Shown here: one piece after another, positions 1-57,849 of the stretch
How positions within the stretch are numbered: the stretch's first letter is position 1
Layout of the letters: each line of letters opens with the position of its first letter
Origin: Bdellovibrionales bacterium
Lineage (GTDB): Bacteria; Bdellovibrionota; Bdellovibrionia; Bdellovibrionales; JAUICD01
Length of the DNA stretch: 64,000 nt
Reading direction: 5' to 3'
Assembly: GCA_965197425.1 (NCBI GenBank)
Contig: CBDANC010000014.1
Coordinates: forward strand, 317,662 to 381,661
The notes under the pieces: model-generated
Told to the model about the DNA's origin: nothing
Seen by the model: the letters and a program-made list of their open reading frames with translations, nothing else
Database searches by the model: none
Translations under genes and position numbers: made by a program

Positions 1-55
1 CTATCAAAGGCTACCACTGATTTTTCCCCCAGTGGCGCAACTTGGCTTAGCCTTA

Positions 56-18610: not shown

Positions 18611-18960
18611 CTTTGGTTCAATTGGCTTACGGGATAAATCTTTATACTTTCCAATTGAAATAACCTCCCTGCGGTCGGTTTTTCAGCTGAATGGTTGCCC
18701 AGTTCAAAGATAAGCCTAACGAGGCCAAATAAATGGACTGGTGCAACGAGTGTACAAAGTACAAGTGAAACCAGAACATTTGTTGGCCAAGTGGCTCCTT
18801 CCCGGTGGACCTCACAGCCAATACCCTACCACTACACATGTCATCAAATTCATTTCCATCAAGATGCTAATCCTGTTCCACAAGGTCTTCCTAATCAAGC
18901 TAAAAGATGGATTGGTGCAACGTGAAAATTGCCCAGCTTTAGTTAGACCGAGGAGGATGA
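18611..18960. repeat. composite intergenic repeat (inverted C-module core + two diverged A-type modules)
   Basis: 18611-18679 is the reverse complement, with a few mismatches, of 29511-29580. caaggtcttcctaatcaagctaaaagatggattggtg at about 18881 is an A-module 5' end. Confidence 0.75.
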
Positions 18961-27943: not shown

Positions 27944-28060
27944 CTAAAAGGCACCTGTAGGTTAGGGTATAATTTACTTAAACTTATCTTTCATACACCA
28001 TATAACACCAAAACAAGGGTTTTTAACAATGTTGTTTCTCAACCCTCTAACGCAAGGTCC

Positions 28061-28465
28061 AAGGTCTTCCGAATCAAGCTAAAAATAGATTGGTGAAATG
28101 CAGGACAAAGTCCAAATGTAACCAAGACATTTTTTAGCTTGAGGGTTGCCCAGCTCTGGACACGAGGCTGATCCCATCACTAAGGTGAGGTTAATGAAGC
28201 TAGAAACAAGGTGACTTGTTGCCTTTTTCTAGCTGAATGCCTGTTCCCTGGTGAACACGATGCCGATCCATTTGCTAAAGGTCTTCCGAATCAAGCTAAA
28301 AATAGATTGGTGAAATGCAGGACAAAGTCCAAATGTAACCAAGACATTTTTTAGCTTGAGGGTTGCCCAGCTCTGGACACGAGGCTGATCCCTTTGCTAA
28401 AGGTCTTCCGAACGAAGAAAAAAACAAGGGGGCCATCGCCTGATCCCCGCTTGCCTGATGCTGGA
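28061..28465 (+). repeat. repeat array: A1 (28061-28174), B module (28175-28277), A2 (28278-28391), truncated module plus tgcctga-type tail
   Basis: A1 and A2 are 114 nt and identical by eye. B has the same architecture (aaggtgaggttaatgaagct ... hairpin aacaag-gtga-cttgtt ... acacgatgccgatcc). Confidence 0.9.
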
Positions 28466-29347: not shown

Positions 29348-29360
29348 ATGTTCAAATCTA

Positions 29361-29477
29361 AAGGTCTTCCTAATCAAGCTAAAAAATGGATTGGTGAAAT
29401 GGTAAGACGGAGTCCAAATGTAACCAAGGCATTTTTTAGCTTGATGGTTGCCCAGCTCTAGAACACGATGCCGATCC
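29361..29477 (+). repeat. A-type repeat module (copy A3)
   Basis: aaggtcttcctaatcaagctaaaaaatggattggtgaaatgg...cattttttagcttg hairpin plus ttgcccagctctagaacacgatgccgatcc. Starts 14 nt after the rplS stop. Confidence 0.85.
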
Positions 29478-29484
29478 CTTTGCC

Positions 29485-29621
29485 AAAGATCTTCCTAACG
29501 AGGACAAAAAACCGACTGCAAAGGAGGTTCATCCAATTGGATAACATAAAGATTCATCCCGTGAGCCAATTGAACCAAAGGCAACAAGTCCACTTGTTTT
29601 TATCCTCATTCGGAAGACTTT
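29485..29621 (+). mobile_element. MITE-like element bounded by ~25-nt imperfect terminal inverted repeats
   Basis: The left end aaagatcttcctaacgaggacaaaaa matches the reverse complement of the right end, aaagtcttccgaatgaggataaaaa (1 indel, 3 mismatches). The core 29511-29580 recurs inverted at 18611-18679. No ORF. Confidence 0.6.
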
Positions 29622-30607: not shown

Positions 30608-30759
30608 TTGGTGGAGTACAAAATATAATGTATGTTTTCACCACCATTAAATGCCTCCACCCGCAGGGTGGTGCCTTACGGCACAGGTATTTAATTGGTG
30701 GAGTACAAAATATAATGTATGTTTTCACCACCATTAAATGCCTCCACCCGCAGGGTGGT
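30608..30759 (+). repeat. tandem pair of identical 65-nt units (30608-30672, 30695-30759; period 87 nt) upstream of glnS
   Basis: Unit is ttggtggagtacaaaatataatgtatgttttcaccaccattaaatgcctccacccgcagggtggt. It contains the hairpin ccaccc-gca-gggtgg. A diverged third copy of the 3' part lies at 32734-32778. Confidence 0.9.
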
Positions 30760-30782: not shown

Positions 30783-32408
30783 ATGAAAACCAATTTTATT
30801 CAACAGATCATCGAAAATTCAAATACAGATGTTGTAACTAGATTTCCTCCAGAGCCTAATGGATATCTACATGTAGGTCATGCCAAAGCTATTTGCTTAA
30901 ACTTTGGGTTAGCAAAAATGTTTAAGGGAAAATGCTTTTTAAGGTTTGATGATACCAATCCAGAAACAGAGAGCGTTGAATATATCAAAGCAATTCAAGA
31001 AGACATAAAGTGGTTGGGATTTCAGTGGAATGGCAAGGCAAGATATGCTTCTGATTACTTTGAAGCTCTTTTTGAGTTAGCGGTTGAGCTTATAAAAAAG
31101 GACCTGGCATTTGTGGATGACGGGAGTGTAGAAGAAATTAGATCCATGAGGGGGTCGCTTACTGCGCCTGGAAAAGAAAGCCCTTATCGAAACAGAATTG
31201 TACAAGAAAACTTAGCGCTCTTTAATCAAATGAGGGAGGGGAAATTTGATGATGGTCAGAAGGTTTTAAGGGCTAAGATAGACATGACAAGTGGAAACAT
31301 GAATTTAAGAGATCCAATTTTATATAGAATAAAAAAAATGTCTCATCCTAGAACAAAAGATTGGGTTATTTATCCAACCTATGATTTTGCACACGGACAA
31401 TCAGATGCAATGGAGCGCATAACTCACTCTATTTGTACTTTGGAATTTGAAGATCACAAACCCTTGTATGATTGGCTTATTGAAAATCTAACTCTTCCTT
31501 CAAGACCAAGGCAGTATGAATTTTCAAGATTAAACTTAGATTATACAGTGATGAGCAAGAGAGCTTTGTTGCATTTGGTAGAAAATAAATATGTATCAGG
31601 TTGGGATGATCCTAGAATGCCCACAATTAGAGGTATGAGAAGAAGGGGATATCCTGCTAGTGCTATAAGAAAAATGTGTGAACTAGTAGGTGTTACAAAA
31701 AAAAATACTATAACCAAGCTTAGTTTTTTGGAGGAGTGTGTAAGAAGACAGTTGGATGATGTTCCTAGACTAATGGCGGTGTTAAAACCAATAAAAGTAG
31801 TTTTAACAAATTATAATGGGGAAGAAATCCTAACTCCGCTTATTCACCCACAAAAACCGGAGCTTGGAAGAAAAAAGTTAATGTTTACAAAACAAATTTT
31901 TATAGAACAAAGTGATTTTATGTTAGAGCCAAAGAAAGGATTTCATAGATTAGGTCCCGGTGGCTTAGTAAGGCTTAGATATGCTTATGTTATTAGATGT
32001 GATGAAGTAACAAAAGACAAACAGGGCAATGTTGTGGAGTTAAGGTGTACTTATTTTCCGGAAACTAAAGGTGGAAAACCATTGGCTAGTGGAAAAAAAG
32101 TAAAGGGAATAATTCATTGGGTTTCATGTATTTATAATAAAAAAATAGAGGCAAGATTATACGACAGATTATTTTTTGCAGAAAATCCTGGAAAAGATTT
32201 TTTGAAAGATCTTAACCCAAATTCCTTGGAGATAATAAAAAATGCCAGAATGGAAAATACAAATAAGGTGGAAACTCCACTCGTATATGAAACATGCCAG
32301 TTTGAAAGATTGGGATTTTTCTGTCCAGATCCAGACTCCACCAAAAAAAATTTAGTAATGAACAAGGTTATTGCATTAAAAGATTCTTATACTGGCACTG
32401 ATTGCTAG
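30783..32408 (+). CDS. glnS: glutaminyl-tRNA synthetase
   Basis: RFPPEPNGYLHVGHAKAICLNFG (HIGH region), VMSKR (KMSKS region), and the GlnRS-type C-terminal anticodon-binding region. Confidence 0.95.
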   Translation: MKTNFIQQIIENSNTDVVTRFPPEPNGYLHVGHAKAICLNFGLAKMFKGKCFLRFDDTNPETESVEYIKAIQEDIKWLGFQWNGKARYASDYFEALFELAVELIKKDLAFVDDGSVEEIRSMRGSLTAPGKESPYRNRIVQENLALFNQMREGKFDDGQKVLRAKIDMTSGNMNLRDPILYRIKKMSHPRTKDWVIYPTYDFAHGQSDAMERITHSICTLEFEDHKPLYDWLIENLTLPSRPRQYEFSRLNLDYTVMSKRALLHLVENKYVSGWDDPRMPTIRGMRRRGYPASAIRKMCELVGVTKKNTITKLSFLEECVRRQLDDVPRLMAVLKPIKVVLTNYNGEEILTPLIHPQKPELGRKKLMFTKQIFIEQSDFMLEPKKGFHRLGPGGLVRLRYAYVIRCDEVTKDKQGNVVELRCTYFPETKGGKPLASGKKVKGIIHWVSCIYNKKIEARLYDRLFFAENPGKDFLKDLNPNSLEIIKNARMENTNKVETPLVYETCQFERLGFFCPDPDSTKKNLVMNKVIALKDSYTGTDC

Positions 32409-32585
32409 CACTGAAAAACCATTGACAACAAACTGTCTTCGCTAGTTTTTGGCGGCGGCCCAACGTTGCACAAGGTCTTCGCACACGTTCCAACATTGAT
32501 TAAATCTGACCATAAACTGTATTTTATTAGGATTTTCTAAAAAAAGTTATAGCAATGTGTATCTTGTTTGCTATGATCTTGTTTC

Positions 32586-35500
32586 ATGGGATGGGGCTTT
32601 CAAAACAAAAACCTTCACAAGGGTATCGACAGTTGTAACACCAACAGTGCTAGTGCTGTTGATGTTGTTGGCGAAGAAGTTAATGCTAAAAACTTTAGTA
32701 ATAACAAATATTTAGCTCCCCCCCCCCCCCCCCAATATAAATTTCCACTATTAAAATGTCTCCACCTGCAAGGTGGTGGGTACTCCACTGGTGGTGGTTT
32801 TACTTTAATAGAGACTGTAGTTGGTTTAGCCTTAGTATCCATATCTGGTTTTGTAGTTACATTTATATCTGGTCAGATGAACACGGCATCTAAGTTGACT
32901 GATGATTCCTATGAATGTGCAGCTATAGCTACTAATGTAATGGAGAGATTTTCTCAGGGTGGCTTAGAGCCTATTGTTTTGCTTAACTCAGAGCATTTCC
33001 CTGGTACTCCTCCTACTGATTTTGAAGCAGCTATAGAAGAAAGAAGCACTATATCTGTAAACACTAGTGGAGAGGCTACTCATAATGCTGGTCCTAATCT
33101 TGTTATAGAGCCTCATGGTAGTAATAGTCACATTACTTTGAAAGTAGATAAGTTTCATAGAGGTAGTGGTGTTAGTTTAGTAGAAGATTTATTTAACGAG
33201 TACCGTTCTACCATATGTCCATCTAATGTAGATAACCTGACCTTTGATCTTGCTAATGATATGGTGATTACCTACAAGGCTGGTAACACTGCTAAGCTGA
33301 TAGACTTACATAAGAAGCTAGATGATGTAAAACCAGCAACTCCAGGACCTGAACCTGATTACTATAAGGAAATGGCTGATGCTAATTTATCTTCTAATAA
33401 CTATGCTTGGGATACTTTTACCTCTGAGTACTTATATGGTTTATCCAAGAGTCTCAAAAATGCCTTAAATTTGCATCTCTTAGCAGGTTTTACTGATTAT
33501 AGTACTAGTTATACTAATACTGCTCAGCCATATGATGTGAAGATAGGTATAAGGCCTTGGAGTTTATCTAATCGTAGTGCTCTTGGTTGTACTGATACTA
33601 AGGTTCATCCAGCAGTCTTTTTAAGACCTGGTTCTAAATATGACAGATACATTACAGATAGTATTTTAGGCACCAACGAATTAGAGAGACAGAATAAGAT
33701 TGGTTATAAGCTGGAGAGGAGTCTAACTTCAGCTAAGATGAGGTCAGATGTAGGTTTGAAGTTATTTGTTGAAGTTAAAACAAGACCTGGTGTGGATAAG
33801 TTAGAAAGATCCTGTAAGTCAAATAAGTTATTTGCTTATGCTAACAGCTTTGCAGTTCCTCCATCTAGAAGACCTGTATATGTTCACCATGACAGAGAGA
33901 TTAAAGATGGTTCTAATGATTTTATAGCTTCCACAACTCACCCTCTTCAAAACAACCCTGGTTTAAATGTTGGTTATAAGTATGGTGCTGCTGATTCTAT
34001 CCCTACTAAGCCTGATGGTGCTACTCATGCTACTCTTAGTGATTATGCTACAGAAGCTACATTAAACTTTAGGAATATTGGTAAGGTTTGGAGAGATGTA
34101 AACAACCCTAGTTCCTTTGCTGATGATGAGGAAGATTTTAGAGGGGTCTTTTTATGTGGTTTTGAGAAGAATCGTTTTGAAGACTGTGTTAAAGGCCCCC
34201 CCGATTGTGATGATATACCAGGTTTAAGCTCCTATAGGACTTTTGGTACTAATGGTGCACATAAGGCTGGTATAAGAAGCTATGATACTGAGTATGGTAG
34301 TAGAGATGGCTCCGTAAACTCATCTAGGAGATGGGATTTATGTGAGAACTTTAAGCTTACCCCCAGTCAATCTAATAATTCTACCACACTAAAAGCCAGT
34401 GCATCCAATGTAGATGATGGTAAGTTAGGACTTGAGTTAGATAATTTAAATGTATCCAGTTGGCCTGATGAAGATCAGGATGCTGATTATAGAGTTAGAT
34501 TTAAGTTAGTAGATGAATATGGTAATGATTACTCTGCCACAGAAAATGGACAGATACAGGAGGATGATTATACCGAGGAGCATAGAGTTTTTGCCTACAA
34601 CTGTGCACAGTTTGGTAATACTCATGCTTCTGGTAGTTATCAAAATCCCCCTATAGGCTGTGGAGTTATAAATCCTGATCCTAATATTGCTAAGTACAAC
34701 CGTAGGATAGATAATCCTTTCTATAATACCCAAGCAGATTGTGAACATCAGTTTAACCTACTTTCCAGCCCCAGTGCTCAATGTGTGAAAGTTACTAATA
34801 TTAGGGTTTACAATGATTATTTTGATGATTCCATAGAGGAGAGGACAGGTCCTGCGAACAGCCCTGTTCGTCCTGTTAATGGTACTGGAGTTACCTGTGA
34901 TTATTGGGTTGAGCAATGTGTAAAAGATGGTACAGCCTGTGTGCAATGTGGCCAAGGTTATATGCGTGATTATCCTAATGCCACAAGACAATCTTGTCAT
35001 GGAGGTTCTGCAAGCTTAGGTGGAGTTACCTGTTATAAAGCAGGCTCTCATTGTTGTCATAATGATTATGGTAGTTTTAACTGTTTTACAGGTAAGGATC
35101 CTTGTTCAAATCCTAATGGTTGTGGATTTAACCAAGATCCTACCTGTGGAGCTACCTGTGGTGATAACGGCCACGGATGTAATATTTGTACAGGAGCTAC
35201 TCCTTGTAACACAGCTGGTTGTGATAGTTGTAGTTTTGGTACTGCTGGAGTTTGTCAATATAAGTGTAGTTTCCCTACTCAGTACTGTGATGGTGCTAGT
35301 AATTGTGTAGAATGTCTGAATGACGGCCACTGTGGTGGTAATGATATATGTTGTTCTTACAGTTGTAAGGCCCCATGTAGTCCAGATTCTGATCAATGTG
35401 AGGAGTGTGCTAGTGATTGTGCATCTCCTCATTCAATATGTGGTTCTGGTGAAGGGTGTAATGGTAGTGGGTGTTGTGTAGAGCTACCGCCTTGGTGTAA

Positions 35501-43339: not shown

Positions 43340-43570
43340 GTTATATACTCCTTAGTAATATAAGATAGCGAATACACCATTTGTGTTTAAAAAGCCAACC
43401 TTTGAGGGAAAACAAACTAGTTCATTATCTTTAGTCAATTCAGCTTGAGATTAATTATACTAATTAAAGCATATATACAAGGGTGTAACAGTGGTGTATT
43501 TTACAAGAAAATCACTTATCAGTCAATACTGTAAAAATTAGTCATGTTAGTCAAAAAATGATACACATGA

Positions 43571-44158
43571 TTAAGAAATTTCTAAAGAAGAGGTAAGAGT
43601 TCTTATCAACAACTCTTCTACATAAGTTCTTTTGATTTTCGGTACAAAACTAAATAATCCATCCATACACGACTTATCTAAACCACAGGGTTTAAGCTCA
43701 AACTCTAAAAAATCATTTGTTAGATTAAATGCCATTCCATGATATGTTACCCACTTCTTTGCTCCAACACCTATTGATGCTATCTTCTTATCAAACACCC
43801 AAACCCCAGTGTCCTTTGCATAAGCGTTTAACTTAAACTCTTTTAAAACCTCAATTGCAACTTGCTCCAAATTTCTCAAGTGCTTGTGAAGGTCTCTTTT
43901 TTTTAAACTTAATATTGGATAAAGTAAAATTTGCCCAGGACCATGTAAGGTAACCTTTCCGCCTCTTCTTATCTTGAAAATTTCACCATCAAAATTTTTT
44001 ACATCTTCCATATTACCAGCAGAACCCACTGTAATAACCTTTGGATGAGAACAAACAATTAGAAATTCTTTTCCCGTGTTATGAGTTATGTCCAACAACT
44101 CTAGTTGCTTGTTAAGAGCTTCTTTATAATCTATTAACCCAAGGTTTATAACTTTCAT
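43571..44158 (-). CDS. lipB: octanoyltransferase LipB
   Basis: RRGGKVTLHGPGQILLYPIL is the LipB signature. ATGA overlap with the lpd stop. Confidence 0.9.
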   Translation of the reverse strand: MKVINLGLIDYKEALNKQLELLDITHNTGKEFLIVCSHPKVITVGSAGNMEDVKNFDGEIFKIRRGGKVTLHGPGQILLYPILSLKKRDLHKHLRNLEQVAIEVLKEFKLNAYAKDTGVWVFDKKIASIGVGAKKWVTYHGMAFNLTNDFLEFELKPCGLDKSCMDGLFSFVPKIKRTYVEELLIRTLTSSLEIS

Positions 44159-45537
44159 TGTCTTTGAAATATATGAACAGGATGACCTAAACCAAGTTCA
44201 CTTGTTTCCATAATCATTTCACTTAATGTAGGATGCGGATGTATAGTTAAAGCAATATCCTCTAAGCTGGCTCCCATTTCTATTGCAAGGCAAGCTTCCC
44301 CTATTAAATTACTTGCATCAAATCCAACTATTTGAACCCCCACAACTAATCCTGTATTTTTCTGGGAAATAATTTTAACAAAACCATAATCCTCCATCAC
44401 AGAAACTGCCCTTGCATTTGCTTTATACGGAAATTTTGAAATTTTATAATCTGCCTTGTTACCCAGCTCTTTTTCACTAAGACCCACAGTTGCAATTTCA
44501 GGGTCTGTGAATATTACAGCAGGTATCACCTTGGCATCAAACACTCTATTTTTTTTGGCAATTACATCAGCTGCCAAAAGTCCTTCATAACTAGCCTTAT
44601 GAGCAAGCATAGGATTTTTAGCTACATCCCCTACCGCAAAAATATTAGAAACACTTGTTCTCATTTGAGGATCTGTTTTTATAAACCCAGATTCATCTAA
44701 ATCCAAATTTAAATTTTTTATCCAAGCTGAATTTGACACTCTTCCTACCGTAACCAAAACCTTATCAGCTTTTAACAAAAGATTACTCCCCTCTATATCC
44801 GCCGAAACCTCCACAGAAGAAACCTTTTTATCAACACTTAACGCCTTTGAATTAGTATGTATATCAACTCCCAAAGTTTTAAATCTCTTTAGGATTTCTT
44901 TACATACATCATCATCTACTAAGCCAGAAAAAAGATTGTCAGAAGCCTCCAAGACAACAACCTTAGTACCAAGCTTTGCCATATAACACCCGATTTCAAG
45001 ACCTATATATCCACCACCAATTACTATTAATTTTTTTATGGGTGTTTTTTGATTTAAGGCTCCAGTAGAAGATAAAATCAAATTCTCGTCATATTCGAAC
45101 CCAGGAATAGTACACGGACTTGATCCAGTAGCTATAATAAAATGTTTTGCTTTTATCCTGCGATCAGAAATAACAATTTCCTGAGAGTTAACAAACGAAG
45201 CTTTTCCTTTTATTACATCCACCTTGTTTGCCTTTAAAAGACTCAAAACTCCCTGCCTCATTTGATCACAAATGCTTTCCTTCCATAACTGCAACTTTCC
45301 AAAATCAACTTCCTGGCTTTCTACAAAAATACCCATTTTACTTGCATTCTCTAAACTTTTAAAAAAATGAGATGCATGGATCAAAGCCTTGGAAGGAATA
45401 CACCCTACATTTAAACAAACTCCACCTAACAAATTCTTTTCCACAACCGCAGTTTTCAATCCATGCTGGGAACATCTAATTGCAGCAGGATAACCACCAG
45501 GACCTGCACCTATTACAACAACATCATACTCTGACAC
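44155..45537 (-). CDS. lpdA: dihydrolipoyl dehydrogenase (E3)
   Basis: GTG start with GGAG upstream. VVIGAGPGGY FAD motif, redox-active GGVCLNVGCIPSKAL, C-terminal HPHPTLSE interface motif. Confidence 0.93.
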   Translation of the reverse strand: MSEYDVVVIGAGPGGYPAAIRCSQHGLKTAVVEKNLLGGVCLNVGCIPSKALIHASHFFKSLENASKMGIFVESQEVDFGKLQLWKESICDQMRQGVLSLLKANKVDVIKGKASFVNSQEIVISDRRIKAKHFIIATGSSPCTIPGFEYDENLILSSTGALNQKTPIKKLIVIGGGYIGLEIGCYMAKLGTKVVVLEASDNLFSGLVDDDVCKEILKRFKTLGVDIHTNSKALSVDKKVSSVEVSADIEGSNLLLKADKVLVTVGRVSNSAWIKNLNLDLDESGFIKTDPQMRTSVSNIFAVGDVAKNPMLAHKASYEGLLAADVIAKKNRVFDAKVIPAVIFTDPEIATVGLSEKELGNKADYKISKFPYKANARAVSVMEDYGFVKIISQKNTGLVVGVQIVGFDASNLIGEACLAIEMGASLEDIALTIHPHPTLSEMIMETSELGLGHPVHIFQRQ

Positions 45538-45562
45538 CTGTCATTCTCCGTTTAATTTGAAA

Positions 45563-46906
45563 TTACTCTATTATCATTTTTAAAGGGTTTTCTAATTTGT
45601 TTTTTAAATCACTCAAACACTTAGCTGCAACTGCTCCATCTATCAACCTATGATCTGCTGTTAGACTTATGTTCATCATATCTCTTGGAACAAATTTTCC
45701 ACATTTAAATACAGGAACTTTTTTGATCCTATATACTCCAATTATAGAAACTTCAGGATGATTTATAATTGGAGTAGCCGAAAGACCACTAATACTACCA
45801 ATGTTGGTTATTGTTATAGTACCTTCTTTTAAATCTTCTAGCTCAAGCTTCCCACTTCTAGCTTTATCAGACAAAACCTTAAGCTCTACGCTTATATCTA
45901 AAATTGATTTTTTGGCCACATTTTTTATTACAGGCACTATCAAACCATCAGGAGTATCTGTGGCAAAACCAATGTTACAGTTTTTTTTGTATATAATATC
46001 CGTATCAGTTAACGAAGCATTTATCATAGGATATTTTTTAATTACCAAAACCAAAGCCTTCATAATAAATGGAAGGAAAGTTATTTTTTTATCAGGATAA
46101 TCTTCCTTAAGCTCTGCTCTTAATTTTACAAGATTAGTTACATCTACTTCTTCTAACACAGAAAAGTGAGGTATTATCTTTTTTGAATTACTCATAGCCT
46201 GTGCAATTTTTCTTCTAATACCTATAAGCTTAACCACTTTATCTTCTTCAAAAACAGACGGCCTATCTTTTTCTAAAGAAGTTACATTTTCTGATACCAA
46301 GTTTTCTGAGGCAAAAATATCTTTAGCAGGCGTTGGCTTTATGCCCATAGCATTTTGAACATCTAACTTGGTTACACGACCCATGTTACCAGTACCCTGT
46401 ATTTTGTTAATGTCTACACCCTGCTCTCTAGCAAAGCGCCTGGTTGAAGGAGTAGCCAAAACATGACCCTCTGCAACTGGCAGATACTCCTCTCGTGATG
46501 GAGAAATATCACTAGAGCTATTTTCTACAGCAGGATTTACTTGAGTTAAATTTTCCCTATTTGATTTAGATTCAACTACTGTTTCAGGTTTGGGGGGCTT
46601 AGGGGGTTTAGGAATTTCAGACACATCAACTGCTTTCTGGGTTTCTTTTTTAGAAAGCGTGTCCTTCGAAGCTTCCTCTATAACTAAAAGTGTTTCACCT
46701 ACCTTTATTGTATCGCCCTCTTTTGCATTAAGTGTTTTAATCTTGCCGTCAAGAGCGCTGGGGATTTCTACCGTTGCTTTGTCAGTCAGCATTTCACATA
46801 ATCCATCATCAGTTTTTACACTGTCACCTGCTTTTACAAGCCACTTTACTAACTCTCCCTCTTGAACTCCTTCTCCTATCTCAGGCAAGGGAATATTTTT
46901 AGCCAT
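45563..46906 (-). CDS. 2-oxoacid dehydrogenase E2 component (dihydrolipoamide acyltransferase)
   Basis: Start moved to ATG 46906 (AGGAG 6 nt upstream; [14 protein letters not shown]...). Lipoyl domain [20 protein letters not shown] linker, subunit-binding [16 protein letters not shown], catalytic DHRLIDG. Substrate class not assignable. Confidence 0.9.
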
Positions 46907-47786
46907 TTTTTCTCCTTTGACTCGCAACACTTTTCATAAAGAACTCATAAGCTCTATAAGAACTCCTCACTAATGGACCGCTAGCTACATACATAAAGCC
47001 TAAATTTTCTGAAACATCCTTCCAATAGTCAAACTCCTCTGGTGTAATATACTCTACCACAGGAAGAAATCTCTTAGAAGGTCTTAGGTATTGACCAAAA
47101 GTTACTACATCACAACCCACAGAACGCAAATCTTTTAAAGCACTCAAGATCTCGCTTTTTCTCTCTCCCAATCCTAACATTAGAGATGACTTTGTATATA
47201 CATTGGATAATTTTTTAGCCTGCTCTAATACAAACAAAGATTGCCTAAAACCAGCACGCATATCTCTTACTTTGGGAGTAAGTCTCTCTACCGTTTCTAT
47301 ATTATGAGCAAACACATCAGGGGAAGAACTTAAAATTGTTTTTAGATCTGTTACAGAACCCTGAAAGTCAGGAGCCAAAACCTCCACAATAATTTTGCTG
47401 TTGTTGTTTTTAATCACCTCAACAGTCTTTGCAAAATGCAAAGCCCCACCATCTGCTAAATCATCCCTGTCAACACTAGTAAGCACCACATAATCCAAGG
47501 CCATCCTAGATACAGCAACCCCCACCTTATAAGGCTCTAACTTATCCAAAGTACCATCCAATTTAGCAGTTTTTACATTGCAAAATTTACAACCCCTAGT
47601 ACAAGTATCTCCCATTATCATGATGGTAGCAGTACCGCCTGACCAGCACTCCCCTATATTTGGGCACTTTGCCTCCTTACAGACAGTAGCCAGGCCCAGT
47701 TCTTTAAACATAGAGGATAACTCAAAATATTTGTCTTGAGAGGGAAGCTTAGCTCTTAACCATTTAGGCTTTTGTAAAACTGACAT
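46899..47786 (-). CDS. lipA: lipoyl synthase
   Basis: [13 protein letters not shown] auxiliary-cluster motif and radical-SAM [10 protein letters not shown]. Confidence 0.93.
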
Positions 47787-47932: not shown

Positions 47933-50926
47933 ATGCAGAACAAATGTAACAGAGGGTTATCTGTGTTTGAAAAGATTGGTCTTATATTTAAACAAAAAAG
48001 CTTTAAGCTTTTTTTTTGTATTAGGTTTTTAGTTGTCCTTTCAGTTACCTTAAGCTTTCTTGTTTTCCCTGCAAAAGCTCTCTCCAACTACAACAGTGAT
48101 GAAAACATAGTTGAGACCGGCCCTAAAACAATGGGGCTGGAGTTTCCAAACGGCAAAACACTTCTCTATGTCCCTGACATGGAATATTCACAAGAAGAGT
48201 TCGAAAGCATAAGTGATATTGAACAAAAAACCTTGGCACTTGGAAAACAAATGCTAAAGCTACAAAACTTAGTAAATGAGCCAGAAACTGGCAATCCTGA
48301 ATATAATTTTCGCATACAAGAACTCTTTAGAGAAGACATAGAGGCAATAGTTCTGAAGGAGATTTCAGGATCTAGAGAGCTTACGCCAGATGTTCTAATA
48401 AAACATGCGAGAGAAAATTTAATGTTTTTAAATCAAAGGTTGGCTTTAGATAAAGCATTAGATCAACTTTTAACATGGCATTCGCTAAGTTATTCTCCTG
48501 GAGAAGAATTTTTACCAGATGATGTTTTACACAAAATAGAACAAAGATTTGATGGCTTAGGAGCAATTGCACAGAGCATGGCCACCACCGTTAGAGAAGA
48601 ACTTGATTTTAATAAAAGTAGAGAGCTTGTGGAAGCAGCAGCTAATTCTTTGTTTTGGACTGGAATAGAAATAGGGGAAATGGCATCAGAAAGAACAGCT
48701 CTTTCCACACGACTAACCGAGCTAAATGGTGAACTAGCAGAATCAACAAGATATCAAAGACAAAATCTTATTAATGAAAGGGCATCAGTCTCTAATAATA
48801 TCGCAATCCACACAATGTTAATCGATAACATGCTAGCTTCTCAGCCATGGTTTTATTTTTTAGATACTGCTGTTACGATCACAGAATCTGACAATCCTGT
48901 AACACTAATGGGATTTATCTGGGAATATACCAAACTCAGTACGGAACAAAATCAAAACTACGACCCAAACGAACTGGCCTTGATCACAGAAACCATTATA
49001 GAAATTGTGTTAGAACAAGCAATAGAAGCAAAAAATAGAACAAAAGATTTTATAGAAGCTATTTTAACTGATGATGAAAAGTACATAGCTCCGCTTATGA
49101 CCTTAAGGGCAGAAACTCTAGATGCGGTAAACCAAGTTCTCTTAGAACAAGAAAGCCATAACAACATTCCAACTCTTGAAGACTACAGAATGGCAGATTA
49201 TAAAATGTCACAAAGATTTGGATTTGTAGCAAATAAATTCCATGCACTAAGATGGCAAGAAGTAGCCACCGATATAGGGTTTGCTGTTGCTTCTGCAACG
49301 GCCATAAAGTTTTATTACCGGGGTGATAAACCGGTAAAAACCTATGATGTAAGGCGGTTCATTAAAAATAGGGTTACAAATAACAAAATAAGAAGGTTGT
49401 TCCCAGCAACAAGAGCTTGGGCAGAACTTTGGTGGGGCAGATTAGATAAATCACAACTTGGGAAAATAAGAAGAGACACCCCTTGGATCATAGCAGTTCA
49501 AGGCGGTTGGTATACAATCCGCCTTGTCAGAAAAACACAATATCGAACAGAACTGATCAAATTTGTTCCAGATGCTATGTGGGCAGGAGCGGCAAGTAGA
49601 TCCTATGCCTCCATGGCTCAAATAGGATATAAAGATTTGTGGCTTAATGCTGTCTTTGATGTTTTAGGCACTTTTACAATGACAAGATGGTTTAGACACC
49701 TAACTCCTAAAGGAGTAGGGAATGCTGTAGCTTACCCATTCAAGAAGAGCAAAGAATTGTTACTAGGCGACGGGCAAGGAAAAAAAGGGTTAATAGGCAC
49801 AATAAAAGCTCTTACGGATGCTATAAAAGGAAGTATTACTAAAACCTCACACTTAGTTAAGCGTTTATATCCACCTATTGTAAGATTTTGGAGAAACCGC
49901 ATAACTCTGTATTCCAAGGAAGCTGCGTTCGTTTTAGGTAGTTTATTGTTTGTAATGGATTCTCAATTGGGAAGAATGCAAAGACCAGATTTTATAGAAA
50001 CTATTACGCGCTCTTGGAGAGGAGAAGCGTCCTTTCCAGAAAAAATTTCGAAAGCTTTTGAAAATTTATGGTATGCATCAAAAGTGGCTATTTTTGGAGA
50101 TAGACAAACCCTGCTAGATACTATTTCAATCGCAGGTGTTGATGCTACATTTATATTTTTTGCCAATAGAAGAGCAATGGCCACTCATAATATGGCAGCG
50201 TTGTATGCAGGTGGAACCGCTATATTTGAATCGTCAGCTCAATTCTTGAGTGTTCGATCAGAAAATAGAAATAACTCATACTTTTCTAATCGCTCAGATA
50301 CATCCTTGTTCTCAAGGCCTCTTGATAGGGTTGGTTGGGAAAGAATTTGGGCTCATTTGGGATATGTATCTAGCTTTTCCATAGCAAAATTTTTTATAGC
50401 ATACTTACCTATCAGAACCCTGAGTTTAGGTGTACTTACAAACATACGTGCCTCTAGTAACTTGAATAAATTTAGAAAATTTGTAGGAGACAGTCGTTTC
50501 CCCGAACGCAGATTGCAATATGGACACTTACTCCAAAATGTAAATGACAAGACCATTAGAACATTGGTGAGAAATCCAGCCCTTACAAAAGCGATTCAAG
50601 AAGAAATTATCACACGTAAAAAGATCTGGTTATTAGCTGAGTTTCTAGGATCATATGCCAGCAATGGTGTTGGAAACTTCATATTTATTACAGTCGCATC
50701 AAAATTAGAACAAACTAGAGTGGAAGGACAAAGTCTAAGCCCTGAGATTATAAAGTGGACAAAAAACACTTTAGAAGAAGAAGGATTAGATCATGACCAC
50801 GCAACTTTGAATGGATTGTATGATGATGTTTCAAAAGATATAGCCATACTAAAACTCTTAAGAGCTGAGGTTGAAGACCAGGCCAGAGACAATTTGGAGC
50901 AGCCTAATGAACCAGATGCTAACTAA
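47933..50926 (+). CDS. large hypothetical membrane-associated protein (997 aa)
   Basis: N-terminal signal/anchor FLVVLSVTLSFLVFPAKA. About 400 aa of helical/coiled sequence, then a basic, Trp/Arg-rich region with several hydrophobic segments. No family recognised. Confidence 0.6.
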   Translation: MQNKCNRGLSVFEKIGLIFKQKSFKLFFCIRFLVVLSVTLSFLVFPAKALSNYNSDENIVETGPKTMGLEFPNGKTLLYVPDMEYSQEEFESISDIEQKTLALGKQMLKLQNLVNEPETGNPEYNFRIQELFREDIEAIVLKEISGSRELTPDVLIKHARENLMFLNQRLALDKALDQLLTWHSLSYSPGEEFLPDDVLHKIEQRFDGLGAIAQSMATTVREELDFNKSRELVEAAANSLFWTGIEIGEMASERTALSTRLTELNGELAESTRYQRQNLINERASVSNNIAIHTMLIDNMLASQPWFYFLDTAVTITESDNPVTLMGFIWEYTKLSTEQNQNYDPNELALITETIIEIVLEQAIEAKNRTKDFIEAILTDDEKYIAPLMTLRAETLDAVNQVLLEQESHNNIPTLEDYRMADYKMSQRFGFVANKFHALRWQEVATDIGFAVASATAIKFYYRGDKPVKTYDVRRFIKNRVTNNKIRRLFPATRAWAELWWGRLDKSQLGKIRRDTPWIIAVQGGWYTIRLVRKTQYRTELIKFVPDAMWAGAASRSYASMAQIGYKDLWLNAVFDVLGTFTMTRWFRHLTPKGVGNAVAYPFKKSKELLLGDGQGKKGLIGTIKALTDAIKGSITKTSHLVKRLYPPIVRFWRNRITLYSKEAAFVLGSLLFVMDSQLGRMQRPDFIETITRSWRGEASFPEKISKAFENLWYASKVAIFGDRQTLLDTISIAGVDATFIFFANRRAMATHNMAALYAGGTAIFESSAQFLSVRSENRNNSYFSNRSDTSLFSRPLDRVGWERIWAHLGYVSSFSIAKFFIAYLPIRTLSLGVLTNIRASSNLNKFRKFVGDSRFPERRLQYGHLLQNVNDKTIRTLVRNPALTKAIQEEIITRKKIWLLAEFLGSYASNGVGNFIFITVASKLEQTRVEGQSLSPEIIKWTKNTLEEEGLDHDHATLNGLYDDVSKDIAILKLLRAEVEDQARDNLEQPNEPDAN

Positions 50927-51936: not shown

Positions 51937-52707
51937 CTACATTACTTTAGCTTCGTTTTTAAGAAGTTCTATTAGTTTTTCTGACATTTCATCTATACTG
52001 CCTTCAATCATCTGTACTTTTTGTCTTTTTTTAGGTGGTGTAAAATCCGAAAATTCCACCTTAGATTCCTTTAGATCAACTCCAAGATCAGTTATAGAAA
52101 TTTGTTCTATGGGTTTTTGTTTGGCCTTTAGTATATTTGGAAGTTTTGGATATCTAGGAAGATTAAGTCCTTTTGTTGCGGTAATAACACATGGTGTATT
52201 TAGCCTTACTACATGCTTAACACCACCTTCTACATCGATTTGTGCTGTTATTTTTTCTGAATAAGAAATACTACTTACATTTGTAGCACTTGGAATATCA
52301 AAAAATGCTCCCAACATAGAGCCTATGCTAGATTGGTTGTGATCTATAGACAAAGTTCCAAGGAAAATAATATCAAATGGACCTTTGTTTTTTAAAGCAA
52401 GGCTTAAAATTTTAGCTTTTAAATAGCTATCAGCAATATTAGTTTCACAATCTATCAAAACAGCATCATCTATACCCATAGCTAGTGCATGTCTTATAGG
52501 TGTAACAATGCTTAAAGCAGAGCCTATAGAAAACACAGTTGCACTACAGTTGTAGTGTTCCTTTGCCTTTATAGCTTCTTCTATAGCAAACTCATCGTAA
52601 GGATTGATTATCCACTTGGGATCTCTTGCTTCTATTTTGTCATCTGTTAAAAGAAGTTTGCTTTCTGTATCATAAACCTGCTTAACACAAACTGCTATCT
52701 TCATCAC
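51937..52707 (-). CDS. etfB: electron transfer flavoprotein subunit beta
   Basis: MKIAVCVKQV...NPYDEFAIEEA is the EtfB N-terminus. Immediately upstream of etfA. Confidence 0.9.
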   Translation of the reverse strand: MMKIAVCVKQVYDTESKLLLTDDKIEARDPKWIINPYDEFAIEEAIKAKEHYNCSATVFSIGSALSIVTPIRHALAMGIDDAVLIDCETNIADSYLKAKILSLALKNKGPFDIIFLGTLSIDHNQSSIGSMLGAFFDIPSATNVSSISYSEKITAQIDVEGGVKHVVRLNTPCVITATKGLNLPRYPKLPNILKAKQKPIEQISITDLGVDLKESKVEFSDFTPPKKRQKVQMIEGSIDEMSEKLIELLKNEAKVM

Positions 52708-52800
52708 TTAAAGGTAACACATGTATTAGTTCCTTCAAGATATTTAAGTTGCAAGAAATCTTTGTTATGCTCAATTAAATTTCATACATCAAAATTAAAT

Positions 52801-52834
52801 AAAAAAAGGTAGGCCAATTAACCTACCTTTTTTC
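52801..52834 (-). terminator. bidirectional rho-independent terminator
   Basis: aaaaaaa-ggtagg-ccaattaa-cctacc-tttttt. Stem of 6-7 bp flanked by an A run and a T run. Downstream of the 386-aa gene. Confidence 0.7.
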
Positions 52835-52859
52835 TTTTACACTAGCTTTAACTATTAAA

Positions 52860-54020
52860 TTAATTACCTGATGTTGATTGACGAATTAAATCCCCAAGTG
52901 TGTTCCAGCCTAAAGCTTCGTCATCGTCAAGATCTCCCAAACTACATTTCTCAATTTCAGCTCTGCTATCTTCAGAGTAGATATAAAAACCGTTGTCGTT
53001 GGCAATTTCTTTTAAGTTCTCGCATATCAAAGGCGTAATATCAAGTAATGCAAAGTTCCTACCTAACAAGTTATCAGATGGAGCAGCACCTATATTCATA
53101 GGCATAATTAAACTTCTGATAACTCCAAGCTCCAATGATCTAGAAAGAATCCTATCTCCAAAAGCATTAGGATTAGCAATTTCAACCAATGCTCCGTTCT
53201 GAATATGTTCATGACTGAAAGTTCCGTTTAGCCCCCAAGAATACGCTGGGATTACCCGAACTAAAGATGAAAACGGGTGGGCATCTACAACCATAACATG
53301 TGCAAGAGGGCGTCTAGTTGTCTTAGTAAACCCAAGATACCTAGAGTTACTATCACAAGGAATTCCACTAAACGAGTGTTTTATATTGTGTATCATAAAC
53401 ACATCGCCTTCCTTCACATTGGCGCGGCTACCAGTCGAAATATAGAAATGATCAGTGAAAGCGTCTGGCTTTTGCACAACCCTACTTCTCCACTCATCTC
53501 CATAGTTGTTATTTACATCATCAACAGCCTTTCTGACTCCATCCTGTAAAGCATTCCGAATAAGATCATTGATAGGGGTGGCCCTAACATGATCCAAACA
53601 TACTCCACCAGACACAATACCTGAAGCACTTGCATTTCCACAGTACAACTCACCATTCCTAACATATAAGTCAAATTGCCATTTTTTGTTTTCCTCTTTT
53701 GCCTCGGAACTTGTCCTAACGAGTTCATAATGATCTTGAGCCGCAATAGTAATTGCTGTACTCATAGACAATTTTGCAGAAGTAGCAATAAATCCTGTAC
53801 TAAAAAAACTTAAAAAACCCCTTAGCAAATCAAATCCCATAACGTGGTTATTTTCGGTAAATACCTCTAAGCTAAGTGCGGTATTATGAATTCTATAATC
53901 TGTATAAGAGTTCAAACAACTATCCATAGATGAGGTGTACCTAGCTCTATCAACCTCTGTCTGAGCCTCAGATAAATAAGGCACCACAACCAATACCAAA
54001 CATAAAAGAAATTTCTTCAT
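52860..54020 (-). CDS. hypothetical secreted protein (paralog 1)
   Basis: Signal peptide LCLVLVVVPYLSEA-Q. Collinear with 54416..55747 from DRARY(T/I)SSMDSCLN onward. No family recognised. Confidence 0.65.
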   Translation of the reverse strand: MKKFLLCLVLVVVPYLSEAQTEVDRARYTSSMDSCLNSYTDYRIHNTALSLEVFTENNHVMGFDLLRGFLSFFSTGFIATSAKLSMSTAITIAAQDHYELVRTSSEAKEENKKWQFDLYVRNGELYCGNASASGIVSGGVCLDHVRATPINDLIRNALQDGVRKAVDDVNNNYGDEWRSRVVQKPDAFTDHFYISTGSRANVKEGDVFMIHNIKHSFSGIPCDSNSRYLGFTKTTRRPLAHVMVVDAHPFSSLVRVIPAYSWGLNGTFSHEHIQNGALVEIANPNAFGDRILSRSLELGVIRSLIMPMNIGAAPSDNLLGRNFALLDITPLICENLKEIANDNGFYIYSEDSRAEIEKCSLGDLDDDEALGWNTLGDLIRQSTSGN

Positions 54021-54184
54021 AACCCCTCCCCAAAAAAATTACAAACCGACACAAATTCTACCATTCTCACAAGAGAACAGGTCAACTCTTAAAATCAATC
54101 CACTAATATTATTATTTATCTAACGTTTTGAAATGTGCAAAATATGAGCAAACAATTTCGAGTACGGCATTTAGAATGCTCTTA

Positions 54185-54263
54185 CTTCTATTTTGTCATC
54201 TGTTAAAAGAAGTTTGCTTTCTGTATCATAAACCTGCTTAACACAAACTGCTATCTTCATCAC
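54185..54263 (-). pseudogene. duplicated 5' fragment of etfB (first 26 codons)
   Basis: 54185-54426 is identical by eye to 52629-52870 (offset 1,556). The copied reading frame stops after about 30 codons. Confidence 0.75.
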
Positions 54264-54356
54264 TTAAAGGTAACACATGTATTAGTTCCTTCAAGATATT
54301 TAAGTTGCAAGAAATCTTTGTTATGCTCAATTAAATTTCATACATCAAAATTAAAT

Positions 54357-54390
54357 AAAAAAAGGTAGGCCAATTAACCTACCTTTTTTC
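54357..54390 (-). terminator. duplicate of the bidirectional terminator
   Basis: Same sequence as 52801-52834, within the 242-bp perfect duplication. Downstream of paralog 2. Confidence 0.7.
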
Positions 54391-54415
54391 TTTTACACTA
54401 GCTTTAACTATTAAA

Positions 54416-55747
54416 TTAATTACCTGTTGTCGGTGGCACACCACTGTTACCTTGGCCAAGAGCTTGAGAGGCCTGAGACGTAACTGTGTCACCTAAACTT
54501 TGACGAATTAAGCCCTCAAGTGTGTTGCCACCAAAACCCTCGTCATCGTCAGGATCTTCCCAAAATATTCTTTCTAAAGTAGCTTCGTCTGCACCACATC
54601 TTGCAATTTCAACCCTGCGATCCTCAGAGTAGATGTAAAAACCATTTTGATTTGCAACTTCCCTTAGGTTTTCACATATCAAAGGCGTAATGTTAAGCAA
54701 TATAGAATTCCTACTACTTAACAAGTTGCCAGATTGACTTGAAGGAGTTAAATTAGCTGCTTCTCCACCTCCTGATGGAGCAGTAGCTGTATTCATAGGC
54801 ATGATTAAGCTTCTGATAATTCCAAGCTCTAAGGATCTAGAAAGAATTCTATCTCCAAAAGCATTAGGGTTAGCAATTTCAACCAATGCCCCGTATTGAA
54901 TGTGTTTGTGACTTGGAACTCCATTTAGATCCCAAGAGTACTCTGGTATTACTTGAACCAAAGATGAAAATGGGTGGGTATCTATAACCCTAACATGCGC
55001 AAGGGGGCGTCTGGTTGTCTTAGTAAATCCAAGATACCTAGAATTAACATCACAAGGAATTCCACTAAACGAGTGCTCTATATTATATATCATAAACACA
55101 TCGCCTTCTTTTACATTTGCATAGTTGCCAACTGGAACATAGAAATGATCGATGAAAGCATCCGGTTTTTGTACAACCCTACTTCTCCACTTATCTCCAT
55201 ATTTATTATTCACATCATCAACAACCTTTCTAACTCCATCTCGTAAAGCATTTCGAATAAGATCATTAATAGGGGTGGCCCTAACATGATCCAAACATAC
55301 TCCACCAGACACAATACCTGAAGCATTATCATTTCCACAGTCTAACTCACCATCAGCTCTAACACCTATGTGAAATTGCCATTTTTTGTTTTCTTCTTTT
55401 GCCTCAGAATTTACCCTAACAGCTTCATAGTAATCTTGAGCTGTGGTAGTAAGGGCTGTACTCATAGACAACTTTGCAGAAGTAGCAATAAATCTTGCAC
55501 TAAACAAACTCAAAAAACCCCTTAGCAAATCAAATCCTAAAGCGTGGTTATTTTCGGTAAGCACCTCTAAGCTAAGCACGGTATTATGAATTCTATAGTT
55601 TGCATAAGCGTTCAAACAACTATCCATAGATGAGATATACCTAGCTCTATCAAACCTACCAAAGAGTCCGCCTGTATTTACATTTTTGCAGGCCACACTA
55701 GATACAAGAATAACTAGAGCTAAAAATGAATATTGTATTGTTCTCAT
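54416..55747 (-). CDS. hypothetical lipoprotein (paralog 2)
   Basis: Lipobox VSSVAC. Homologous to paralog 1 but with insertions (e.g. SGGGEAANLTPSSQSGN) and a longer Gly/Ser/Gln-rich C-terminus. Confidence 0.65.
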   Translation of the reverse strand: MRTIQYSFLALVILVSSVACKNVNTGGLFGRFDRARYISSMDSCLNAYANYRIHNTVLSLEVLTENNHALGFDLLRGFLSLFSARFIATSAKLSMSTALTTTAQDYYEAVRVNSEAKEENKKWQFHIGVRADGELDCGNDNASGIVSGGVCLDHVRATPINDLIRNALRDGVRKVVDDVNNKYGDKWRSRVVQKPDAFIDHFYVPVGNYANVKEGDVFMIYNIEHSFSGIPCDVNSRYLGFTKTTRRPLAHVRVIDTHPFSSLVQVIPEYSWDLNGVPSHKHIQYGALVEIANPNAFGDRILSRSLELGIIRSLIMPMNTATAPSGGGEAANLTPSSQSGNLLSSRNSILLNITPLICENLREVANQNGFYIYSEDRRVEIARCGADEATLERIFWEDPDDDEGFGGNTLEGLIRQSLGDTVTSQASQALGQGNSGVPPTTGN

Positions 55748-55965: not shown

Positions 55966-56075
55966 ACTTTGAGATTTAAATTTAAGACTTAAAACACAAT
56001 ATAAACATATCTCACACCTAATGTACATTTAGCAATGGTTGATTTTTACAATTATTTGACAGGACTTTTTTCAAT

Positions 56076-56253
56076 AAAGGTGAGCTTGATGAGGCTAAAA
56101 GATGGATTGGTGAAATAAAGGACGTAGTCCAAATGAAACCAAAACATCTTTTAGCCTCATGGCTCTTTCGAAAACAGATCTCTGCAAACCCCCTGTTTTA
56201 TCGATAAATCAGAGATAGAAATAATATCATGTTTCTGCGTCTTCCTCATGGGG
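56076..56253. repeat. composite intergenic repeat (short A-type hairpin module + inverted F module)
   Basis: The hairpin is aaaggtgagcttgatgaggctaaaagatggattggtg...catcttttagcctc. 56190-56253 is the inverted counterpart of 5753-5814. Confidence 0.75.
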
Positions 56254-57770: not shown

Positions 57771-57849
57771 TGAAGCCTCATTAAGCTCACCTTTGTTAAA
57801 AAAAGGTAGGCGTAGCCTCCTTGTTTTTGGCCTCATTAGCCTCACCTTT
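57771..57849 (-). repeat. two inverted A-module 5' termini flanking a terminator-like hairpin
   Basis: gaagcctcattaagctcaccttt (57772-57794) and ggcctcattagcctcaccttt (57829-57849). The second contains the TGA stop of the 602-aa gene. Confidence 0.75.
57798..57828 (-). terminator. rho-independent terminator after the TadG-like gene
   Basis: aaaaaaa-aggtaggc-gta-gcctcctt-gttttt. An imperfect 8-9 bp stem with a T run on the minus strand. Confidence 0.55.

Follow-up and report, generated by a model that had tools for sequence, protein, structure and literature searches.

The window analysed here, a stretch of 64,000 nucleotides of a Bdellovibrionales genome, contains two giant genes that lie convergently between the housekeeping genes glnS and lipB. 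Gene A (32586-38333, forward strand) is an open reading frame (ORF) of 5,748 nt for a giant pilin-like protein of 1,915 residues, and gene B (38807-43339, reverse strand) is an ORF for a predicted anchored and stalked adamalysin-like metzincin of 1,510 residues. They are the sole long ORFs between glnS (30783-32408, forward strand; TIGR00440, 699 bits) and a row of four reverse-strand genes, lipB (43571-44158), lpd (44155-45537), an E2 acyltransferase gene (45563-46930) and lipA (46899-47786). Family matches agree with the housekeeping identities that the original prediction had given to these flanks, and its outline of two convergent genes with 10.3 kb of coding sequence and a 473-nt spacer was likewise recovered, with 10,281 nt of coding sequence and a spacer at 38334-38806. 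The spacer contains reverse copies of intergenic repeats that occur throughout the window, as well as a hairpin (38692-38704) that is terminator-like on both strands. It had been described as almost entirely made of repeat modules, but only approximately 190 of its 473 bases (spacer positions 219-327 and 396-473) match other repeat copies in the window. A blastn search with the spacer matched 13658-13796, 29403-29510, 56073-56164 and 18892-18954, and the repeats are thus spread over the window and not specific to the A/B locus.

Leader, head and tail of gene A

Upstream of the putative prepilin site of A, the ATG at 32586 is the only in-frame ATG, GTG or TTG and sets the leader at 71 residues; leaders of A orthologues have approximately 85-100 residues. 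The start is part of a 5' block (32545-32618, forward strand) that comprises a promoter-like TGcTATGAT, the ATG and the first 11 codons (MGWGFQNKN...). L081, the orthologous locus, matches this block at more than 90% of positions, and the leader beyond 32618 could not be aligned with it. Since a consensus promoter scan gave no sigma-70 site at 32545-32618, we only infer that a promoter is present there. In three of four orthologues the ORF is open from the common MGWGFQNKN start with differing leader lengths, which argues for translation of the leader.

The leader contains a homopolymer of 16 C (C16; 32718-32733, forward strand) that codes for PPPPP. The original prediction had pointed to this tract, and it is indeed alone of its kind: no other C or G run of at least 8 is present in the 64 kb, where 0.56 such matches are expected by chance. 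Because it lies inside the only available frame, a change of 1 or 2 bases ends translation within approximately 10 codons. Tract lengths of 13, 16 and 19 alone keep the frame of A, and the others lead to a stop within approximately the same distance. L081 has C9 at the equivalent position. Furthermore, the protein call of the orthologue P0002 begins at M98, past the anchor, and leader and anchor are absent; an out-of-frame tract in P0002 would yield exactly such a call. The tract may function as a slipped-strand switch that turns A on and off, in analogy to pilC of Neisseria, for which phase variation by a homopolymer tract of G9-20 inside the reading frame is described (PMC5953494, citing Jonsson 1991). 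Like pilC, A has a long homopolymer near its coding 5' end and the length of the homopolymer sets the frame. PilC, a pilus-associated adhesin, is not a pilin and has no sequence relation to A; moreover, switching of A is suggested by the C16/C9 difference, which is between lineages and not within one strain, and by one truncated orthologue.

Downstream of the leader, A has the core of a class III (prepilin) signal followed by a hydrophobic helix (32796-32870, forward strand). The sequence G71-F72-T-L-I-E76, followed by TVVGLALVSISGFVVTFI, has G at -1, F/M at +1 and E at +5 relative to the expected cleavage site and approximately 20 hydrophobic residues, and the single hydropathy peak of A is at residues 70-97. 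The model TIGR02532 (IV_pilin_GFxxxE) gave 16.8 bits with a 75-residue fragment, above its cutoff of 16.3, and 15.4 bits with a 205-residue fragment; the next-best models were of the minor pseudopilin type (GspI, ComGF and GspH). The pilin-like anchor that had been proposed for A is therefore supported by motif, hydropathy and family model. A prepilin peptidase would be expected to cleave A between G71 and F72. The window contains one further pilus-related gene, which is TadG-like and encodes 602 residues (57842-59650; PF13400 at residues 9-55).

The part of A that follows the helix and extends to residue 860 (32871-35165, forward strand) is lineage-specific, as residues 98-860 have no match in Pfam, NCBIfam or PDB. 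An AlphaFold2 (AF2) model of the head, made from 4 sequences, had a predicted local distance difference test score (pLDDT) of 26.6 and was unusable. Full-length homologues of A are restricted to three (P0002, P0003 and P0004) among 5.8e9 proteins. An exhaustive HMMER search of 1.84e9 representatives with residues 60-900 revealed, fragments aside, no wider family, and in the same search six proteins of 140-209 residues matched the pilin helix only. These six proteins (P0033-P0038) have long repeat-like N-terminal extensions, and in several of them a GGG(G) run is located shortly before the end. The six may represent additional A-like genes of more distant relatives that are truncated at a homopolymer.

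The remainder of A, residues 861-1915 (35166-38330, forward strand), is a hypervariable array of 1,055 residues with 189 Cys (17.9%) that is also rich in G, T, P and S. This array had been called eukaryote-like, but no EGF, furin, ephrin-receptor-like or other Cys-repeat family of Pfam or NCBIfam matched it even at E<=10, and the label is therefore without support. Two tandem units of 426 bp (142 residues; 36444-36869 and 36870-37295, forward strand) are identical at 415 of 426 positions (97.4%, where 98% had been reported). Between A and P0002 there are no substitutions over residues 98-1089 (992 residues), and after residue 1090 the identity falls abruptly to 60% and further to 28-40%. Each of the four orthologues has its own content and number of tail modules. 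In L081, a second giant gene that is Cys-rich and A-like (2-3787) is located directly upstream of the A orthologue and is cut by the contig end; it encodes 53-residue repeats (...CGSCESCSGGSCVLDSCGSGCFSGYNYTSSQGSC...), seven of which are identical, and the eighth deviates from them near its end only. The tail of A is swapped and expanded in blocks behind an invariant head, and this exchange may supply antigenic or ligand variation.

Signals, stalk and catalytic domain of gene B

The catalytic region of B (38810-40039, reverse strand) has the characteristics of a reprolysin/adamalysin-like metzincin. It contains the zinc motif HEIGHVLGLSH at residues 1350-1360 (HEIGHVLGLSHD at residues 1350-1361; 39257-39292) and, downstream, a candidate Met-turn in the conserved GTIMSY at residues 1400-1405 (TIMSY, residues 1401-1405, at 39125-39139), so that both the HExxHxxGxxH(D) motif and the Met-turn of M12B metzincins are present. 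In Pfam, B matched Reprolysin_5 with 29.0 (cutoff 27) and Reprolysin_4 with 25.4 (cutoff 22). B belongs to a family of 25 proteins, as 24 homologues have its architecture, and 19 of the 25 members match Reprolysin_3/5. The AF2 model of the catalytic domain had a pLDDT of 74.9 and a predicted template modelling score of 0.78. Its best match in Foldseek was 6O38 (CpaA; E 3e-9), followed by ADAM, ADAMTS, TACE and snake-venom proteinases, with a probability of 1.0 for CpaA, the ADAMs and the snake-venom proteinases. Adamalysins were also found from sequence alone, since the B family profile matched leucurolysin in PDB with E 1e-4. Motif, Pfam thresholds and modelled fold thus agree with the stalked metzincin of the original prediction. 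Across orthologues, the stalk is 75-96% identical and the catalytic domain 25-55% per bin of 50 residues.

B starts with TTG at 43339, with AGGAG at 43348-43352. Hydropathy indicated three hydrophobic segments, at residues 9-30, 171-190 and 215-237. The first belongs to a Sec-type signal peptide (residues 1-31; 43247-43339, reverse strand) that ends in ...SNA-Q, with cleavage expected before Q31; an alignment of 7 family members shows no variation at A30 and Q31. It is followed by a conserved N-domain (residues 32-170; 42830-43246, reverse strand) with four conserved Cys (52, 91, 103 and 114) and the family consensus SFTDPxxxDLRLA...LLIDxxxC..SILEFVxSLCSS, for which no match was found in Pfam, NCBIfam or PDB. 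The two other hydrophobic segments belong to a predicted membrane hairpin (42629-42829, reverse strand) that consists of residues 171-190, a basic loop and a lipoprotein-type signal at residues 215-237. The lipobox of this signal, L-S-S-C234 (residues 231-234; 42638-42649), is part of RIKP-VLSGAMLILATLG-LSSC234 and has the pattern [LVI][ASTVI][GAS]C after a basic n-region and an h-region. Conservation among the 25 family members is at least 90% for K216, P217, V218, L219, G221, A222, L226, A227, G230 and C234. A similar box is carried by ordinary N-terminal lipoproteins in the window, e.g., LVSCGD. The signal of B is not N-terminal, as the Sec signal, the N-domain and the hydrophobic residues 171-190 precede its lipobox. 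An internal translation start that would make B a conventional lipoprotein was ruled out, because there is no in-frame start codon just upstream. Given the Cys residues of the N-domain and a Cys pair in each stalk module, the sole consistent topology is one in which the N-domain is outside, the hairpin follows and the chain after C234 is outside again. Signal peptidase II would cut B at C234.

The stalk consists of five modules of approximately 165-175 residues (40040-42592, reverse strand) that start at residues 250, 421, 585, 762 and 926 and are visible as DNA repeats with a period of 483-531. A Cys pair (C..GYFEL..C) stands at the start of each module, and orthologues differ in their number of modules. 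No Pfam family matched the stalk modules in any of the 25 members. Sub-fragments searched against Pfam and NCBIfam at E<=10 gave sub-threshold noise only (Big_3_2, DUF5597, MucBP and Vps4_C) and we therefore do not call the modules Ig-like. The signs of rapid evolution that had been ascribed to both genes are supported, as is the assignment of both proteins as exported and of surface type.

Dispersed repeats and the rest of the window

Short repeats are translated within both genes. The leader of A contains a copy of a dispersed palindromic repeat (32745-32798, forward strand; CCACCTGCAAGGTGG at 32762-32776) that is translated, as ..LLKCLHLQGGGYSTGGG, between the C tract and the cleavage site. 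The CCACCTGCAAGGTGG element occurs twice more in non-coding DNA upstream of glnS, at 30657-30671 and 30744-30758. There, two copies of an 87-bp unit (30608-30759) have identical 65-nt cores (30608-30672 and 30695-30759), and each holds the palindrome CCACCCGCAGGGTGG; the element with CCACCCGCAGGGTGG is the one that is also translated inside the leader of A. In L081 the leader palindrome is read in another frame (NTSARRVV). The basic loop of B contains the 18-nt repeat GGTTACACCACCCGTGTA (42710-42727, reverse strand) as an in-frame insertion of six codons, GGYTTR, and an identical copy is at 43292-43309, which makes two exact copies where 0.01 are expected. The insertion is missing from the B orthologues P0006-P0008. 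The GGY[TS]T strings that the original prediction had noted in A and B therefore exist, but they are not a shared protein feature: orthologues lack them and they are encoded by short dispersed palindromic repeats. A common protein sorting motif GGY[ST]T was accordingly ruled out, and GGYTT is common to A and B as an in-frame translated DNA repeat. Rickettsia palindromic elements and other miniature inverted-repeat transposable elements are known to be inserted in frame and translated within proteins (PMC10969869), as are the short palindromic repeats in the leader of A and in the GGYTTR of B. Unlike the Rickettsia elements, which have approximately 150 nt, the repeats described here have 18-55 nt and an unrelated sequence and are located in signal or linker regions.

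The intergenic repeat family has copies at 10059-10279, 13658-13879, 18731-18954, 28059-28400, 29359-29510, 38552-38806 and 56073-56164. It is modular, with units of approximately 40-140 nt that are 65-98% identical and are mostly located just downstream of genes; a tandem pair is present at 28061-28400. The family has no Rfam match, the sole match in an Rfam scan of the window being tRNA-Cys.

Elsewhere in the window, lipA, the E2 gene, lpd and lipB form a single cluster (43571-47786) without an adjoining E1 gene, and divergent to it a 997-residue protein with a signal or anchor and without family match is encoded (47933-50926). Lipoproteins are numerous. Three consecutive lipoprotein genes without family match are located at 722-4649, and large lipoproteins with Peptidase_M74 (MepA-like) domains and a mutual identity of 33% are encoded at 5910-8111 and 8268-9932. 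Two paralogous genes for secreted proteins or lipoproteins (52860-54020 and 54416-55747) are 74% identical and have no Pfam match; a stretch of 252 nt that runs from the 3' end of the upstream gene into the first codons of each paralogue (52623-52874 and 54179-54430) is 99% identical, and the pair looks like a recent segmental duplication. The window also encodes PhaR, complex I subunits and electron transfer flavoprotein. A 700-residue ankyrin-repeat protein (10702-12804; Ank_2, E 2e-61) and a eukaryote-type cytosolic 5'-nucleotidase cN-II (56293-57687; PF05761, E 1e-135) are also encoded; as a guess, these two proteins hint at a host-associated lifestyle.

The pair in relatives, its possible function and the alternatives

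Relatives of A and B were found in contigs of NCBI and ENA assemblies only, and scans of JGI metagenomes with alignments of A and B gave none. In L081 (ENA) the A orthologue is followed by opposite-strand fragments of the B orthologue, so that the convergent order is kept, and the neighbours differ from those in our window, with the A-like gene upstream and dapF/dapB downstream. L082 contains a B-family gene (33% identity), resolvase fragments, a D5-type primase gene and, after these, a convergent Cys-rich gene of which the 3' end is present and which carries the characteristic module of A (...ITCGxGxMxxYP...). Approximately 7.6 kb with the resolvase and primase genes separate the B-like from the A-like gene, and a homologue search with the A-like fragment of L082 gave no matches. 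In addition, P0002 and P0006, the closest orthologues of A and B, respectively, each come from a 461,012-bp contig. The expectation that A and B co-occur thus held for L081, L082 and P0002/P0006, but not for L083 and L084, in which B paralogues stand alone. The surroundings of B-family genes include the resolvase fragments and D5-type primase gene of L082 (7720-13736) and, in L084 (744-9583 and 24190-26831), genes for Rpn/Transposase_31, a Type ISP restriction enzyme and MunI-type restriction-modification beside the B paralogues; these regions of L082 and L084 are variable and recombination-rich. Since the A/B pairing recurs in two related contigs with differing flanks, a functional module is plausible.

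We regard A and B as native surface proteins that are built to vary and that probably act on one external target, at about even odds (probability approximately 0.5). This target is probably the surface of a host, of prey or of a matrix. A would be translated from the ATG at 32586 through the 71-residue leader to the prepilin site and cleaved there by prepilin peptidase, and its helix would anchor it in the inner membrane or at a filament tip, of type IV or type II. Anchored A could then display a lineage-specific head of 790 residues and a disulfide-rich tail of 1,055 residues, with slippage at C16 switching it on and off and block exchange altering the tail. The signal peptide of B would export the Cys-containing N-domain, and the hairpin would bring the chain back to the membrane. 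There the internal lipoprotein signal would be lipidated and cut at C234, releasing a lipoprotein with a five-module stalk and a C-terminal metzincin, similar to a CpaA-type glycoprotease. A might adhere, and B might proteolyse the bound surface or trim A itself. The conserved convergent neighbourhood suggests co-use of the two proteins; surface exposure, display on a filament and any interaction of A with B are predictions. By analogy with CpaA, B is possibly a glycoprotease.

Several observations weigh against this interpretation. The leader of A far exceeds any classical prepilin leader, part of it is a translated dispersed repeat, and no Shine-Dalgarno sequence precedes its ATG. Genes for a prepilin peptidase or filament machinery were not found in the 64-kb window, with the isolated TadG-like gene as sole exception. 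A globular pilin fold of A (alpha1-C packed on a beta-sheet) is neither supported nor contradicted, as the AF2 model was unusable (pLDDT 26.6) and PDB gave no sequence match. The known difference in C tract length is one between lineages. For B, the second hydrophobic segment (residues 171-190) is short, with a mean hydropathy of 1.65, and a described precedent for an internal lipobox was not found in the literature. Regarding the pair, L081 has its B copy in fragments and dapB is split there as well, and the fragmentation of B may be an artefact of a frameshift-prone assembly. B paralogues without an A-like gene within 5-10 kb (L083 and L084) make up two of the four related contexts, and the B family is larger than the set of A-like genes, reaching 8 members on a contig of 1.24 Mb and at least 4 on one of 1.6 Mb.

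One contrast stands apart from these points. The region of A up to residue 1089 is identical in P0002, whereas B and P0006 are approximately 70% identical, and P0002 and P0006 apparently derive from one contig. Possible reasons are that the 5' part of A was recently transferred or converted by recombination between gene copies, or that B evolves very fast.

The lone paralogues and the excess of B-family genes over the three A homologues also speak for the main rival explanation, in which A and B are mere neighbours, i.e., an adhesin and one of many paralogous proteases whose gene order was inherited in a narrow clade. Convergent genes are moreover separate transcription units, each with its own signals. 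Still, the pairing is kept in L081 despite wholly different flanks, and in L082 at 33% identity of B and with approximately 7.6 kb inserted. We consider this explanation possible but doubtful.

Doubt of a different kind concerns the role of A. Modular type IV pilins, such as PilB and PilC of Streptococcus sanguinis and CofB of enterotoxigenic Escherichia coli, have a class III signal and helix and carry large non-pilin modules, whose display at the filament tip for adhesion is presumed (PMC8179133). Like these, A has an N-terminal class III signal and pilin helix that bears a large non-pilin part. It differs in its size of 1,915 residues, more than twice that of the largest modular pilin (860 residues) in the 2021 survey (PMC8179133), and in its leader of 71 residues, where modular pilins have about 6-30 and class III signal proteins in general a short hydrophilic leader of about 5-30. 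Its modules match no known domain, its C-terminal 1,055 residues are a hypervariable array with 18% Cys, and a pilin fold for its head has no support from model or PDB match. Alternatively, A may not be a filament subunit at all, and its class III signal could be only a cleavable membrane anchor or export signal of a giant cell-bound protein, as in the archaeal bindosome, or A could be an accessory pseudopilin of a type II secretion system (T2SS). The size of A, the best N-terminal matches to the pseudopilins GspI and GspH and not to major pilins, and the lack of pilus genes close by fit this alternative, as does the reported use of class III signals by non-pilus surface proteins (PMC3047682). 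On the other hand, bulky modular pilins are thought to be located at the tip precisely for their bulk (PMC8179133), and the present data fit an anchor-only A and display at a tip alike. We consider it unlikely that A acts outside a filament.

For B, the closest known protein in structure is CpaA of Acinetobacter, a metzincin of MEROPS family M72 that is secreted by a T2SS as an O-glycoprotease and that is represented in 6O38 together with its membrane chaperone CpaB (PMC7542363). In CpaA, four Ig-like repeats in tandem, which form the substrate cleft, precede a C-terminal metzincin, and cleavage depends on O-glycans (PMC7542363). B likewise has tandem repeats before a C-terminal metzincin and its catalytic domain has its best fold match in CpaA; the comparison is one of fold and order of parts. 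The identity is approximately 14-15%, and by sequence B is nearer to the reprolysin/adamalysin (M12B) models. In contrast to CpaA, which is soluble, B has a predicted membrane or lipid anchor, and it further differs by its five repeats of approximately 170 residues, an extra N-domain and the absence of a CpaB-like gene near B. The T2SS-dependent surface lipoproteins PulA, InvL and SslE are large and present enzymatic or adhesive heads on the cell surface by means of a pseudopilin-based machine (PMC12802150). B resembles them as a predicted large lipoprotein with an enzymatic head, and the pseudopilin machine is a conceivable link to A; their lipoboxes are N-terminal, unlike that of B at residues 231-234. 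The claim that the two genes match nothing described is therefore too strong, since the parts of B are ordered as in CpaA and A fits the modular type IV pilins. The features that are unusual are the long repeat-built leader before the prepilin site of A and the conserved internal lipobox of B.

These resemblances allow a more specific and quite improbable reading, in which all of the following would hold together. A and B would be two halves of a hitherto undescribed, type IV filament- or T2SS-dependent surface system of a lineage that is probably associated with a host. As a self-contained polyprotein, B would have an internal lipoprotein signal that is cut by signal peptidase II, its membrane-bound N-terminal fragment would serve as chaperone or prodomain, i.e., as a version of CpaB in cis, and the lipidated stalked glycoprotease would be brought to the cell surface by filament machinery. 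A would be a phase-variable giant tip pilin, of which the cassette-swapped Thr/Pro/Cys-rich tail positions B or is its substrate.

The original prediction had considered the locus an inserted accessory island, and a horizontally acquired island or mobile module between glnS and lipB would agree with the presence of the pair elsewhere in relatives (beside an A-like gene and dapF/dapB in L081), with the resolvases, D5-type primase, Rpn/Transposase_31 and restriction-modification systems that adjoin related loci, and with the dispersed repeats in the spacer and in the leader of A. However, these repeats are spread over the whole window, and no integrase or other mobility genes were found in the window and no tRNA or direct repeats at the borders of the locus. 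The GC content rises from approximately 36% for the window to 46% at the locus, but the GC content at third codon positions (GC3) is the same as in the housekeeping genes (0.22-0.25 for A and 0.24 for B, compared with 0.21-0.33). The excess is at second positions (GC2 = 0.69; codons for Cys, Gly, Thr and Pro), and the rise is therefore due to amino-acid composition and a foreign origin of it was ruled out. The locus thus has none of the deviant composition, mobility genes and border tRNA or repeats by which genomic islands are recognized. In a comparison of glnS neighbourhoods, none of 80 loci in other genomes had lipB or lpd beside glnS or shared further genes of the window, and no uninterrupted glnS-lipB junction was seen; since all 80 are distant (<=57% glnS identity), this comparison of empty sites is effectively uninformative. 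Insertion as an island is in our view very unlikely.

Least probable of all is that A is decaying or mis-assembled, with an untranslated junk leader, C16 as a sequencing artefact and no functional pilin-like product: homopolymers are error-prone in long-read assemblies, frameshifts are many in L081 and L082, and A lacks a Shine-Dalgarno sequence and has a leader partly made of a translated repeat element, but an open ORF of 5,748 nt is not expected by chance in AT-rich DNA, the conserved start leads into an open frame in three of four orthologues, whose leaders differ in length, 992 residues are without substitution compared with P0002, and L081 has a homopolymer at the equivalent place.

If A is processed and displayed like a pilin, it more than doubles the known size range of modular pilins. 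Prepilin peptidases would then accept a leader of 70-100 residues that partly consists of mobile repeats and contains a simple-sequence switch. The exchange of the Cys-rich tail of A behind an invariant head of 992 residues is a clear case from nature of cassette variation in surface proteins. With B, a family of stalked adamalysin-like proteases is defined that, apart from the catalytic domain, is not annotated in Pfam and that has a conserved internal lipobox. This family has grown to approximately 8 copies in genomes known from contigs of 1.2-1.6 Mb. Together, A and B are candidates for the attachment to, and digestion of, a host or prey surface by an uncultured bacterium with a small genome.

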